Of a stretch of DNA of 64,000 bases, positions 38,372-42,426 are shown piece by piece. The stretch covers positions 12,285-76,284 of the forward strand of contig JAZOAC010000071.1 of the NCBI GenBank assembly GCA_045595285.1. Reading direction: 5' to 3'. Origin of the DNA: Kiritimatiellia bacterium. GTDB taxonomy: Bacteria > Verrucomicrobiota > Kiritimatiellia > RFP12 > UBA1067. Made by a program: the position numbers and the translations under genes. The notes below the pieces were generated by a model that saw nothing but the letters and a program-made list of their open reading frames with translations, was not told the DNA's origin and ran no database searches. Each line of letters begins with the position of its first letter. The stretch's first letter is position 1.

Positions 38372-38716
38372 ATGTCCGCCGAGAATAATCTGAAGTCGTT
38401 TGAGTGCCTTGGATGCGGTGCCTGCTGTCGCATACCGAATGGTATAGTTCGCGTTTCCGAAGAGGAGATATTGCGCATATCCGGTTTCCTCGGGATGCCG
38501 GAGCAGGAGTTCATCGCCAACGAGACGGATGTCGCTCCGGATCGGAGCGGGCTCGTCCTCAAGAGCCGGCCAGACAATTCGTGCGTCTGGCTTACGGAGG
38601 ACAATCGCTGCCGTATCCATCCTGTGAAGCCCGAGAAATGCAGGACATTCCCCTATGATTGGGTCAATCCCGATTCGTATGAGGTCTGCGCCGGATTGCG
38701 CAAGACTAGGGTTTAG
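38372..38716 (+). CDS. YkgJ-family cysteine-cluster protein (UPF0153)
   Basis: CLGCGACCR (CxxCxxCC) is present, together with the downstream C..W....RC.IH..KP..C..FP pattern. Confidence 0.8.
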   Translation: MSAENNLKSFECLGCGACCRIPNGIVRVSEEEILRISGFLGMPEQEFIANETDVAPDRSGLVLKSRPDNSCVWLTEDNRCRIHPVKPEKCRTFPYDWVNPDSYEVCAGLRKTRV

Positions 38717-38826: not shown

Positions 38827-38883
38827 AGAAATGTAAAAGTTATGTAAAAAAGTTTTTACATAACTTTTACATTTCTTTTACAT
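38827..38883. repeat. 50-bp perfect AT-rich palindrome (24-bp arms, 2-nt centre) containing ATGTAAAA/TTTTACAT octamers, plus one more TTTTACAT
   Basis: Left arm 38827-38850 is AGAAATGTAAAAGTTATGTAAAAA. The centre is AG. Right arm 38853-38876 is TTTTTACATAACTTTTACATTTCT and is the exact reverse complement, checked base by base. Octamer copies start at 38831 and 38842 (+) and at 38855, 38865 and 38876 (inverted orientation). Confidence 0.9.
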
Positions 38884-38910
38884 TTCCATGACACTTCTCT
38901 TTTCGTTCTT

Positions 38911-38919
38911 TGATATCTT
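38911..38919 (+). promoter_or_regulatory. extended -10-like element TGATATCTT downstream of the palindrome
   Basis: TGATATCTT lies 35 nt after the palindrome and 83 nt upstream of ATG 39003. It has the same TATCTT hexamer as the tRNA-operon element. Confidence 0.35.
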
Positions 38920-39002
38920 TTTCTGCGTATGAGGCGCTGCATGCGCATGGTCGGGTGGCCGTTGCGGATATGCGCCGAAACGAAAAGGAAAGGAACGGAA
39001 CT

Positions 39003-39128
39003 ATGAAGGAAAGACTGATCTGTATCGGCGGTTACATGCTTGCCGCCGCTCTTTCACTGCTGCTGCTTGTCGCGGTTGCCGAGCTGTCAATGCGGGATAC
39101 GGTCCCGTGCGCAACGCTGGAATGGTGA
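39003..39128 (+). CDS. possible small membrane protein (41 aa)
   Basis: AAGGAAAGGAA lies upstream of ATG 39003. It contains a single hydrophobic helix (ICIGGYMLAAALSLLLLVAVA). It is the C-terminal part of track ORF 38910..39128. Confidence 0.3.
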   Translation: MKERLICIGGYMLAAALSLLLLVAVAELSMRDTVPCATLEW

Positions 39129-39141
39129 AGGGGGGTGTGTC

Positions 39142-39738
39142 ATGGATTACTCAAGGAACGATCAGAATGGTGATTTCGAGGTGCGGCCACGCTATGTCTG
39201 CTGCCATCCGAACACTCAGGGGACTGGCACGTCGGTGAAGTTCGAGCTTCATCCAGCGCACGACTATGTTGAAGGGTCTGTGTTTGTCACGTTTGCCTCG
39301 CAGAAGACTCTGGGCTCCTACGGCGGCGGCAAACCGATACCGCCCACGTTCGACTGGGAGAACAGCGTCACGATACGCCTCACGATAAACGAGGTGGCGG
39401 AGATGCTGGAGGTGTTCCGCGGATACCGCGAAAAGTTGGGCGACGGGAAGGGACTGTTCCATACAACGGTGGAGAACAACACCGTCATAACGTTCGAACA
39501 CAGGCTCGAGCCGGCCCCAGGGTACCTCTTTGGGGTCTCACGGAAGAGTGTCGATGGTTCGCTCAAAAGGATGCGGATTCTCATTTCAATGAATGAATCG
39601 ATTGTCCTTTCTGAGGCTTTGGGAGCCTCGATGCTCTATATGGCATTTGGGGTCCCTAAGGTGATCCGGCGTGCCGACAGGAGGGGCGGACAGGAACGGC
39701 AGAAGTCTGTCCCTGTCAAGGAGGTAGCGGTGGCATGA
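39142..39738 (+). CDS. Whirly/PUR-like fold candidate (putative ssDNA-binding protein)
   Basis: GAAGGGGGG lies upstream of ATG 39142. The sequence has two beta4-alpha-like halves. VKFELHPAHDYVEGSVFVTFASQ...FDWENSVTIRLTINEVAEMLEVFRG and GLFHTT..VITFEHRLEPAPGYLFGVS...MRILISMNESIVLSEALGASMLYMAFG parallel the remembered plant Whirly layout (..REGMVMLQFAPA..RQYDWSRKQVFSLSVTEIGSIISLG; EFFHDP..KVLKVEPLPDGSGHFFNLSV..IYIPVTKAEFAVLVSAFNFVMPYLLG). Confidence 0.45.
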   Translation: MDYSRNDQNGDFEVRPRYVCCHPNTQGTGTSVKFELHPAHDYVEGSVFVTFASQKTLGSYGGGKPIPPTFDWENSVTIRLTINEVAEMLEVFRGYREKLGDGKGLFHTTVENNTVITFEHRLEPAPGYLFGVSRKSVDGSLKRMRILISMNESIVLSEALGASMLYMAFGVPKVIRRADRRGGQERQKSVPVKEVAVA

Positions 39739-40877
39739 GGTGCTGGGCGGCAAATTCGGCTTCCATCACGGAGCGTCATGTGCAGGCAATATGGTATGAT
39801 TCCGCATTGCGTCCTGCATGTCTGCGCACTGTTTTGGGCGGCGATGTGTCGGTCGTGGATCCTGGCGTCTGGAACCTGGAGGCGGGACCTGATTTCCGCC
39901 ACGCGGTTCTTGAGCTGGGACGCGACCGGCGCAGGGTCGAGGGTGATGTCGAAGTGCATCTCAAGCCTTCGGACTGGTCGCTTCACGGTCATTCCACCGA
40001 TTCTGCCTACGGCAATGTGGTGGCCCATGTGACATGGCATCAGGGAGATCCACCGCCCGATTTGCCGCCGGGATGCGTCTCCGTGTGCATCGGGAACTTC
40101 CTGCGTGCCCGGAACGACTTCTCTCCGGACGAAATAGACGTTGCGGCGTATCCGTACGCAAAGCTTCCTGCAAGCAGGCGTCCGTGCGAACGCTTCTTCG
40201 GGCAGAACCCCGATCTCGGTCTTGAGGTTCTGCGTGAGGCGGGTCGGCGCAGGCTGCTCGTCAAGGCTCACCGCATGCAGAAGCGGTTCCTTCGTGTAGG
40301 GGATCCTGAGCAGGTGTTCTACGAGGAGATGTTTGCCGCATTTGGATACGCGAAGAATTCGGTTCCGTTTCGGGTTCTCGCGGAAAGGCTTCCGCTGCAG
40401 GATCTGCCCACCTCCGAGGAGATGGCGTGCGAGGCGTTGAACAGCGTCGCTGCGCTTGAGGTCGCGGAGACGCACCCGTGGTGCAGGGCGAACATACGTC
40501 CCGCAAACCGGCCTGAGGTGCGAATGATGGATGCGGCCGCCCTGTTCACGGGCGGCAAGCCGCGCCACCTGGGCGCACGGTTCCTTGCCGCCTTGATGGC
40601 GAACGTGATCGTGCCGTATGCGATTGCGCGGGGCGTGGTGAAGGACGTTCCCAGATGGCTGCCGCCCGAATGCGCAAACGGGGTTACGCGTCTTGCGGCG
40701 TTCAGGCTGTTCGGGAGAGACCATAATCCCGCGCTGTACTCCGGGAACGGCGTACTGCAGCAGGGACTGATTCAGATACATCGCGACTACTGCCTTGCGG
40801 CACATCCGGATTGCGTCGCATGCAGACTTGTCGCGGAACTTGAGAATGTCTGTCGAGAGGAGGAGTCAAATGGATGA
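39735..40877 (+). CDS. DUF2851 family protein
   Basis: The ATGA overlaps the upstream stop. ERHVQAIWYD, VVDPGVWNLEAGPDFRHAVLEL, GDVEVHLKPSDWSLHGH and YGNVVAHV match the remembered DUF2851 N-terminal blocks. Confidence 0.75.
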   Translation: MRCWAANSASITERHVQAIWYDSALRPACLRTVLGGDVSVVDPGVWNLEAGPDFRHAVLELGRDRRRVEGDVEVHLKPSDWSLHGHSTDSAYGNVVAHVTWHQGDPPPDLPPGCVSVCIGNFLRARNDFSPDEIDVAAYPYAKLPASRRPCERFFGQNPDLGLEVLREAGRRRLLVKAHRMQKRFLRVGDPEQVFYEEMFAAFGYAKNSVPFRVLAERLPLQDLPTSEEMACEALNSVAALEVAETHPWCRANIRPANRPEVRMMDAAALFTGGKPRHLGARFLAALMANVIVPYAIARGVVKDVPRWLPPECANGVTRLAAFRLFGRDHNPALYSGNGVLQQGLIQIHRDYCLAAHPDCVACRLVAELENVCREEESNG

Positions 40878-42426
40878 CGAGAGGAAGATGAGATTGGCGA
40901 AATGCTATTCCGGAGCGGTGTCCGGAGTGAGCGCCAGATCGGTGGAGATCGAGGTGTGCGCGTCTGACGGCTCTCCGCAGTTCACTATTGTGGGGCTGCC
41001 TGATACCGCAGTCAAGGAGGCCAAGGACAGGGTGTCTACGGCAATCGGGAATTCGGGGTTCGCCAAGCCCGAGAGGAACATAACGGTGAATCTTGCGCCT
41101 GCTGACGTCAAGAAGGAGGGTCCACTGTACGATCTGCCGATTGCGGTGTGTCTTCTCGCCGCCACGGACAAGGTCCGGTGCAGGGACCTTTCCGAGTGGG
41201 GCATGGTGGGGGAGCTTGCGCTTTCTGGAGAGATTCGAAGGGTGCGCGGTGTCCTGCCGATCGTGATGGAGATGCGGCGAATAGGAAGGAAGGGCGTGCT
41301 GGTCCCTGTGGAAAACGCCGAGGAGGCCGCCGTCGTGGACGGAATATCGGTCTATCCGGTGCGGAATCTCCGGGAGGCATTGGGTTTCCTTACAGAGGAC
41401 GTCGAGATCGCACCTGTGTTTTCGGATATTTCGAGACTCGTCATGGCCGGACGCGATACGGGCGATGACTTTGCGGATGTCAAGGGTCAATACTTTGCAA
41501 AGGAGGCGATTGAAGTCGCCGTTGCCGGCGGACACAATCTGATGATGGTGGGATCTCCCGGCTGTGGCAAGACTATGCTTGCAAGGCGGATTCCGTCTAT
41601 CCTGCCTCCGCTGAGCGTCGAGGAGGCATTGGAGGTCACCCGCATCCATTCCGTGGCCGGCGTTCTGAAGCCCGGACAGCCGCTCATGGTCCATCGGCCA
41701 TTCCGGGCGCCGCACCACACGGCCTCGTCTGCGGGTTTGCTCGGTGGCGGAACGCATCCTGTGCCGGGAGAGGTGTCGCTTGCCCATAGAGGGGTTCTCT
41801 TCCTCGATGAGATGCCTGAGTTCAGCAGACACGCCCTTGAGGTGATGCGACAGCCGCTTGAAGATGGACATGTTGCGATATCGCGTGTGTCTGGGACGTG
41901 CGACTATCCGAGCCGGTTCATGCTGGTGGCTGCGATGAATCCGTGCCCGTGCGGATACTGGGGCGATTCGCACCGGGAATGCAGATGCTCGCGGACAAAG
42001 CGTCTGGAGTACCGCAACAGGGTGTCAGGTCCGCTGCTGGACAGGATAGACATTCAGATCGAGGTCACGCCCGTGTCTTACGAGGAGCTCGCGGAGTTGC
42101 CGACAGGTGAGCCGTCCGCCACGATAAGGGAACGGGTGGTTAGGGCGCGAGAGATCCAGCGCAGACGTTTCGCGGATGACCCTGACGTGTTCTGCAACGC
42201 AGAGATGCGATCAAGGGACATTGCCCGCTACTGTCGGCTTGACCGGGCGGCGCAGGGGATGTTGCGGGAGCGCTTGAGCAAACTGGATCTGTCCGCACGT
42301 GCGTACGACAGGGTGCTGAAGGTCGCGCGGACGATCGCGGATCTCGCAGGGCGTGACGCCGTAGGCGAAGGGGATGTGAACAGGGCGGCCGGGTGGCGGG
42401 CGCTGGACAGGAACTACTGGATGTAG
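40870..42426 (+). CDS. comM: YifB/ComM family Mg-chelatase-like AAA+ ATPase (competence helicase ComM)
   Basis: GGAGGA lies upstream of ATG 40870, and the gene overlaps DUF2851 by 8 nt. The N-terminus is Lon-protease-like (VEIEVCAS..FTIVGLPDTAVKEAKDRV). Also present are GHNLMMVGSPGCGKTMLA, VLFLDEMPEF and the Cys-rich PCPCGYWGDSHRECRC. Confidence 0.9.
   Translation: MDDERKMRLAKCYSGAVSGVSARSVEIEVCASDGSPQFTIVGLPDTAVKEAKDRVSTAIGNSGFAKPERNITVNLAPADVKKEGPLYDLPIAVCLLAATDKVRCRDLSEWGMVGELALSGEIRRVRGVLPIVMEMRRIGRKGVLVPVENAEEAAVVDGISVYPVRNLREALGFLTEDVEIAPVFSDISRLVMAGRDTGDDFADVKGQYFAKEAIEVAVAGGHNLMMVGSPGCGKTMLARRIPSILPPLSVEEALEVTRIHSVAGVLKPGQPLMVHRPFRAPHHTASSAGLLGGGTHPVPGEVSLAHRGVLFLDEMPEFSRHALEVMRQPLEDGHVAISRVSGTCDYPSRFMLVAAMNPCPCGYWGDSHRECRCSRTKRLEYRNRVSGPLLDRIDIQIEVTPVSYEELAELPTGEPSATIRERVVRAREIQRRRFADDPDVFCNAEMRSRDIARYCRLDRAAQGMLRERLSKLDLSARAYDRVLKVARTIADLAGRDAVGEGDVNRAAGWRALDRNYWM

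Follow-up and report, generated by a model that had tools for sequence, protein, structure and literature searches.

Sequence organization of the palindromic site

Which function could a perfect 50-bp AT-rich palindrome have in a GC-rich stretch of a Kiritimatiellia genome: an operator for the genes that follow it, an AU-rich intrinsic terminator, or a cruciform, recombination or uptake-related site? These three roles were offered by a first-pass annotation of the 64,000-nt stretch of DNA analyzed here (hereafter, the window), which corresponds to a part of contig C71 of assembly G000. The features of the palindrome and its surroundings used throughout the analysis are as follows.

38372..38716, plus strand: gene for a protein with a YkgJ-type CxxCxxCC zinc/iron-chelating domain (from the list of open reading frames; Pfam PF03692, E 9.6e-12)
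38827..38876, no strand assigned: perfect palindrome, formed head-to-head at the junction of inverted boxes I2-I1 and direct boxes D1-D2
38828..38849, minus strand: two inverted 11-bp boxes, GAAATGTAAAA and GTTATGTAAAA, that make up the left arm and have their TTTACA cores on the minus strand
38854..38897, plus strand: four direct 11-bp boxes that form the conserved part of the array (period 11 in Tandem Repeats Finder; 11-sequence alignment), in the order D1 TTTTACATAAC, D2 TTTTACATTTC, D3 TTTTACATTTC, D4 CATGACACTTC
38894..38910, plus strand: 17-nt spacer of fixed length between the proximal core ATGACA (38888-38893) and the TG of the -10-like motif
38911..38919, plus strand: TGATATCTT, an extended -10-like motif (TGnTATCTT) that is invariant in the alignment, putative operon promoter
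38920..39002, plus strand: putative 5' leader with a conserved CGGGTGGC motif, placed according to the -10 position
39003..39128, plus strand: small transmembrane ORF of 41 aa, the first gene after the array, also called with 41 aa in metagenomic relatives
39142..39738, plus strand: gene for a 198-aa Whirly-fold protein (AlphaFold2 model with pLDDT 84; Foldseek)
39735..40877, plus strand: gene for a DUF2851 protein (Pfam PF11013, E 2.4e-36)
40795..42426, plus strand: gene for a ComM/YifB-type Mg-chelatase-like AAA+ protein (Pfam PF01078, PF13541, PF13335); its true start may lie downstream of 40795

The palindrome is real and far beyond chance. Its arms (38827-38850 and 38853-38876) are 24 nt each, 100% complementary and separated by a 2-nt centre, and the absence of mismatches claimed in the first-pass annotation holds on base comparison. 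The chance expectation of perfect palindromes with 24-nt arms is about 5e-9 in 64 kb. The octamer ATGTAAAA is found five times in the window, each time at this site, versus 0.51 expected copies, and a count of five was reached in none of 100 shuffles. The site had also been described as an extreme compositional outlier, in agreement with the 22.5% GC of the 71-nt array at positions 38827-38897 versus 58.4% GC of the window.

The palindrome is part of an array of boxes, not a stand-alone element. Altogether, this array consists of two inverted and four direct boxes with an 11-bp period and the core T(T/G)ACA. Tandem Repeats Finder reports a period of 11 with 3.0 copies of the consensus TTTTACATTTC at 38854-38886, and the sixth box is the degenerate CATGACACTTC at 38887-38897. 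The octamers, previously described as spaced 10-11 bp apart, follow each other at exactly 11 bp inside each arm, whereas the step over the centre is 12 bp. The predicted folding energy of the palindrome is -32 kcal/mol for RNA (z -8.4) and -20.9 kcal/mol for single-stranded DNA (z -9.8).

The distances given in the first-pass annotation, namely 110 nt from the stop of the upstream gene (38716) to the palindrome and a -10-like TGATATCTT that starts at 38911, are both correct. We infer from sequence conservation that the TGATATCTT module has promoter activity. The pattern T-TG-TATCTTT is invariant in the alignment of 11 orthologous regions, and the 17-nt spacing recurs in all 12 sites of genus g1 (counted by eye), comprising those upstream of the operon and those upstream of the transposase gene described below, as well as in metagenomic relatives. 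One detail counts against the promoter-module reading: the proximal box is 20 nt from TATCTT, that is, 3 bp upstream of a canonical -35 position. The leader would be about 77 nt long if transcription begins about 7 nt past the -10 motif. The CGGGTGGC motif of the leader (window positions 38940-38975) is kept among the operon leaders of the genus, about 45 nt past the -10 motif. The comparison with Rfam produced no family above threshold and only sub-threshold look-alikes of miRNA hairpins.

Among the proteins encoded downstream, the 198-aa protein is, according to its structural model, a Whirly-fold protein. Its top Foldseek matches are AtWHY1 (4koo), PBF-2 (1l3a) and StWhy2 (3n1h), with E about 1e-7. 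The Whirly profile had no match among PDB sequences, and the fold search alone succeeded.

Genomic copies and the twin module upstream of a transposase gene

According to the first-pass annotation, dozens of randomly scattered copies would point to a generic REP-like element. The genome-wide search revealed two arrays in the 3.8-Mb assembly, one at the window site and the other at C172:17196-17271. The assembly is a metagenome-assembled genome of 3.82 Mb in 184 contigs that is 86% complete, and thus further array copies may be missing from it. Single ATGTAAAA octamers occur 89 times in the genome versus about 61 expected, and they form clusters at the two loci only. The same two loci were the only ones recovered by a relaxed scan for four boxes with period 11 and at most two mismatches. 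When 11-bp-period arrays of any sequence were searched for, three were found in the genome, the third being an array with a CTTAAG core on contig C166.

The proposed generic role as a REP-like, uptake or recombination site is not borne out by these counts, since the array has two copies only, and the REP role is filled by a separate GC-rich sequence, GGGTCTGTCCCC, with 39 copies. Two specific candidates of this kind were rejected. A DNA uptake sequence needs hundreds of copies, in contrast to the near-expected octamer number given above and the clusters at two loci only. REP and REPIN elements are many dispersed, GC-rich, imperfect palindromes, whereas the array has two copies and 22% GC.

The second array is a twin of the first. 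It has the layout of the window copy and about 76% identity to it over roughly 110 bp, and the similarity takes in the degenerate fourth box, the length of the spacer and a -10-like TGCTATCTT. The twin precedes a gene for a 282-aa protein by about 75 nt and is oriented to this gene as the window copy is to the operon. The 282-aa product matches the Pfam family Y1_Tnp (E 7.8e-11), scores 73 bits with the NCBIfam model of the REP-associated tyrosine transposase (RAYT), for which the cut-off is 80, and contains the HUH (MDNHFHL) and YIHGNP motifs; its close homologs are named RayT by JGI. The occurrence of a twin module before a RAYT gene suggests that the site is a regulatory switch common to both loci and not an isolated hairpin. 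The two innermost boxes of the twin have C/G for the A/T of the window copy, a symmetric double change (A>C with T>G) that leaves the palindrome perfect.

Several other sequences were noted around the Y1_Tnp genes. The REP-like 12-mer GGGTCTGTCCCC, for which about one copy is expected in the genome, is present on contig C172 at L005:5290-5310, about 40 nt from the twin array. On the same contig, a tRNA-like sequence (L005:3925-4010) is found about 300 nt downstream of the RAYT gene, and an ORF reads through it. The CTTAAG array (G000:C166:38541-38590; L008/L280) is composed of AATCTTAAGAA, AATCTTAAGAT, TCGCTTAAGGT and TCGCTTAAGAT and directly precedes a Y1_Tnp paralog. For other Y1_Tnp paralogs of the genus, tandem repeats with units of 14 or 17 bp were noted, closely followed by a TGnTAnnnT motif.

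Conservation of the array within the genus

We compared the orthologous intergenic regions from each of the 11 other members of the genus in which the 198-aa gene is present and from three metagenomic relatives. Four to six phased T(T/G)ACA boxes are present in 11 out of 11 genus members and in 3 out of 3 metagenomic relatives, and in each of them TGnTATCTT is located exactly 17 nt past the proximal box. The operon downstream of the conserved array encodes the small transmembrane protein, the Whirly-fold protein, DUF2851 and ComM. The T, A, C and A positions of the four direct boxes are invariant in the 11-sequence alignment of the orthologous regions. The conserved four-box array therefore includes the right arm of the palindrome.

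The inverted boxes, in contrast, vary among species. Six species (G002, G003, G007, G009, G010 and G012) have none, G004 has one, G000, G001 and G005 have two, and G006, G008 and L317 have three to five. In L317, which is the nearest relative, the palindrome is imperfect. This variation suggests that the left arm is a lineage-specific inverted addition and that the perfect symmetry of the palindrome is recent. The exact octamer pair is absent from 60 relatives, suggesting that the box sequence is species-specific, and scans of the genome and metagenome collections with ATGTAAAAGNNATGTNAAA gave single chance matches in AT-rich organisms only.

The distribution of the inverted boxes bears directly on the proposal of an AU-rich terminator. 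The palindrome may function mainly as an intrinsic terminator or insulator hairpin that shields the promoter from read-through of the upstream gene, and the twin may do likewise. Such a role is physically possible. The stable RNA hairpin described above is followed by UUUUACAUUU, a consensus scan accepts the palindrome and lists it on the plus strand only (20 pairs counted, tail TTTTACATTT), no other terminator-like site is listed in the 110 nt past the upstream stop, and the upstream gene is co-directional at both copies. In IS200, a hairpin upstream of tnpA blocks read-through. The similarity of our site to Rho-independent terminators and to the IS200 insulator lies in the long hairpin and T-rich tract after a co-directional gene, and in the transposase-type gene at the twin. 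However, the 24-bp stem is AU-rich, with three or four G-C among the pairs counted, the T-run is interrupted, and the hairpin is absent at half of the orthologous sites. Termination is not the conserved function, because the six species that have the array at the same place without inverted boxes have no hairpin. Moreover, G006 and G008 possess a separate canonical GC-rich terminator before the array, and the symmetry is broken in the nearest relative. A main role in termination appears unlikely, and a terminator function would be secondary and lineage-specific at most.

Concerted change of the operon and RAYT modules

The boxes belong to species-specific types, namely TTTTACAT in G000, TTTGACAT in G001 and G005, and TTTTACAA in G004. 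The RAYT ortholog in G000, G005 and G004 is preceded by the operon box type of its own genome together with TGnTATCTT; at the G001 RAYT site, the contig ends within the array, and only the last box is available. The identity of the two modules within a genome (0.76, 0.84 and 0.68 in G000, G005 and G004, respectively) is greater than between genomes except for the sister pair G001/G005, while the sequence past the -10 motif tracks orthology instead of genome.

The two modules of one genome are alike even at the spacer positions, which suggests that gene conversion or duplication contributes to their co-variation, and not only co-evolution with a binding factor. We therefore attribute the co-variation to homogenisation of the whole module by gene conversion or duplication, to which co-evolution with a binding factor possibly adds. 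Since direct and inverted boxes are homogenised together, the mirrored changes in the stem are not proof of base pairing.

Concerted change also bears on a reading without any dedicated protein, in which the phased T-tracts form curved DNA or an UP-like element that strengthens the promoter. Tracts of four or five T recur every 11 bp upstream of the promoter, and the array region has 22% GC. However, it is the T-ACA cores that are invariant, not the T-tracts alone, in each genome the box cores of the two loci have changed together, and GC-containing spacers exist, for example in the GTGACA units of G022. We consider this explanation very improbable.

A larger repeated unit was observed around the RAYT gene in G004. 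The unit is composed of a REP cluster (GGGGACAGACCC), a linker, the array, the promoter, the RAYT gene and an inverted REP, and it occurs at least five times in different contexts, mostly at contig ends. The operon site of the same genome has in common with the RAYT unit the last REP-like sequence, the linker, the array and the promoter. A REP-bounded RAYT unit is also present in L364 and L365, and REP clusters in inverted orientation flank the RAYT gene in G004, L364 and L365. In the metagenomic relative L364 (2084-2668), the RAYT unit is immediately followed by a 194-aa fragment of Cpn60/GroEL, and this unit may have inserted into a groEL copy or next to one.

Arrays outside the genus

Three phased TKACA boxes were identified in 52 out of 251 genomes of the order, with few matches for a reversed control. 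These arrays are usually located at a promoter's distance upstream of genes and are accompanied by a TGnTAnnnT motif. In genus g20, G125 and G261 have a near-perfect palindromic GTTACA array upstream of comM-Whirly, followed by TGCGATAAT, and G125 also has a nearly identical copy of this module before a RAYT-like gene (382 aa) with flanking GGGGGACTGTCCCCC. In genus g3, a palindromic TTTACAC array is located about 150 nt upstream of the Whirly gene of G014, and two more array copies are found at contig ends beside REP-like sequences, with the downstream gene off the contig. On the basis of these sequence arrangements, the pairing of the competence-like operon with a RAYT gene is recurrent in g20 and probably also in g3. 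Elsewhere, arrays precede genes for RAYT (G022, G217), DUF2851 (G225), a UbiE-like methyltransferase, and others.

Two further groups of sites were noted. Phased TKACA arrays are present before orthologous genes for secreted proteins with a vWA domain in genera g38, g22 and g19 (L331-L335, L340, L342, L343 and L376), which suggests that the regulon has a conserved member besides the competence-like operon. The second group consists of sites in several genera of families f1, f9 and f10 (L308, L309, L310, L311, L313, L314, L316, L303 and L304), at which a conserved palindrome GAAAATGTCGC-N5/6-GCGACATTTTC is located between an HTH-like gene and the Whirly gene. This palindrome might serve as an operator, or else as a conserved terminator.

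The proximity of some arrays to transposase genes raises the question of whether the array with its palindrome is a recognition or processing site of an HUH enzyme, comparable to the iterons next to a hairpin at rolling-circle origins, or a transposon end, with the window copy being a solo end that was left before the operon. Two of the three 11-bp-period arrays in G000 are directly upstream of Y1_Tnp genes, including the CTTAAG array at the paralog, and the unit of REPs, array and RAYT gene is multiplied in G004 and bounded by inverted REP-like sequences, as it is in L364 and L365. The symmetric double change, which leaves the palindrome of the twin perfect, also speaks for this reading. [quoted passage not shown] Our site is similar to the pMV158 dso in having 11-bp tandem repeats near an inverted repeat and, at the twin copy, an adjoining gene for an HUH enzyme. 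In contrast to pMV158, the HUH protein is of the Y1 RAYT type with its own REPs, and the palindrome is made of the repeats themselves. An origin for an HUH initiator was rejected, because no HUH gene accompanies the window copy and because G002, G010 and G008 retain arrays without a Y1_Tnp match. The retention of operon arrays in these three genomes also argues against a processing site or transposon end. The direct boxes are orthologously conserved at a fixed distance to the -10 motif, which corresponds to promoter logic and not to end logic; the expected substrate of RAYT is the separate GC-rich REP family that goes with its genes; and in other genera, the arrays are mostly found before ordinary host genes (vWA, UbiE-like, DUF2851). 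We regard a recognition site or transposon end as very unlikely.

Candidate binding proteins

If the boxes are bound by a protein, the geometry of the array is closest to the phased direct repeats recognized by ArcA, PhoB and WalR-type regulators. The WalR motif is TGTWAH-N5-TGTWAH, and that of Bacillus subtilis PhoP is TT(A/T/C)ACA-N5. The TGTAAA-N5-TGTAAA of our array has the same type of core and the same period as these motifs. ArcA sites contain two to five direct repeats with 11 bp from centre to centre, at or upstream of the -35 region (PMC3798270). The four head-to-tail boxes at exactly 11 bp are thus a feature in common with the operators of the OmpR/PhoB family (ArcA, PhoB, WalR/PhoP). 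Unlike these operators, our array includes inverted boxes that give a perfect palindrome, has only two targets in the genome, and has a box sequence that drifts among species and is homogenised between two loci. The three OmpR-type regulators of G000 have unrelated neighbourhoods and no arrays at their promoters, and none of them is linked to either site. A reading as a Pho box or SOS box was rejected, there being only two sites and none at a Na/Pi transporter gene. In genus g17 (L290, L291, L293, L294 and L297), an OmpR-type regulator (REC and Trans_reg_C-like) is encoded directly upstream of the Whirly-fold gene.

Two further candidates are encoded next to the modules. A universal role of RAYT as the binder was rejected, since G002, G010 and G008 keep the array although they have no Y1_Tnp match and hence no Y1 transposase gene. 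DUF2851 was rejected as a hidden regulator: its model is confident (pLDDT 85) but shows no recognisable DNA-binding fold, and the search of this model against PDB gave no significant fold match.

The operon's own Whirly-fold protein is another candidate. By analogy with its plant counterparts, it might bind the phased boxes in melted or single-stranded DNA, with each protomer contacting approximately one 11-nt box, act as an autoregulator and gate the RAYT gene as well. The targets of plant Whirly (PBF-2) are the ERE TGACAnnnnTGTCA and the PB element GTCAAAA(A/T) (PMC9070903). Potato PBF-2 binds a TGACA/TGTCA element and a GTCAAAA core, and the proposed contact between Whirly and box would be of the same kind. 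The boxes of relatives and the inner RAYT boxes of the twin read TGTCAAAA...TTTTGACA, similar to ERE and PB, and the array directly precedes the gene of the Whirly-fold protein. The GTCAAAA(A/T) or TGACA-N-TGTCA element is present in the inner boxes of the twin and in G001, G005, G006 and G008, but not in the window boxes, which have GTAAAAA instead of GTCAAAA. The Whirly-fold protein is only 16-19% identical in sequence to its plant counterparts. A Whirly gene is found in 41 out of 52 array-positive genomes versus 165 out of 251 genomes overall, a comparison that is confounded by phylogeny, and G030 has arrays and no detectable Whirly gene. Among the residues compared with box type, K142 and I175 are common to species of the TTTACA type, that is, two columns versus a null of zero to one per species. 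Altogether, binding by the Whirly-fold protein appears rather unlikely. If true, it would mean that Whirly proteins had their sequence preference before the plant proteins arose and that the activity of RAYT is linked to DNA uptake and recombination.

Proposed function and significance

Among the three roles initially offered for the palindrome, that of an operator fits best, as the octamers are the cores of boxes phased at 11 bp right beside a conserved -10-like motif, and the direct boxes recur at the orthologous site throughout the genus. We propose, with good though not full confidence, that the palindrome is a part of a cis-regulatory module of about 95 bp (the similarity to the twin extends over about 110 bp), in which phased boxes, putatively bound by a factor, are set on the extended -10 promoter of the operon for the transmembrane, Whirly-fold, DUF2851 and ComM proteins, and that this module is common to the operon and the RAYT gene.

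In the proposed mechanism, the four direct boxes on one helix face, ending 17 nt before the TG, would be the conserved operator. Two inverted boxes would have been added in this lineage, and their junction with the first two direct boxes would have created the perfect 50-bp palindrome. A sequence-specific DNA-binding protein would fill the phased boxes cooperatively and control the access of RNA polymerase. The same protein would act at the RAYT promoter, the only other copy in the genome, and the uptake/recombination-like operon and the RAYT gene would be expressed together. Incidentally, the palindrome may also act at the RNA level, where its hairpin would block transcription that runs on from the upstream gene. 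Both the binding of a protein and the co-regulation of the operon with RAYT are predictions from the sequence comparisons described above.

The kind of regulatory site proposed here is already known, and its points of interest are the proposed coupling of RAYT to competence and the lineage-specific concerted evolution of the two modules. The array is nearly the only one of its kind in the genome, and it exemplifies how a striking perfect palindrome can arise simply from the addition of inverted operator boxes. The module of 110 bp could be used as bait for the regulator. The competence-like ComM/ComEC/Whirly cluster and the RAYT gene have in common a private, co-varying array, the proposed operator, in two genera at least, and a third genus adds partial evidence. 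Such an array would concretely connect a domesticated transposase for single-stranded DNA with the machinery by which single-stranded DNA is imported and integrated.
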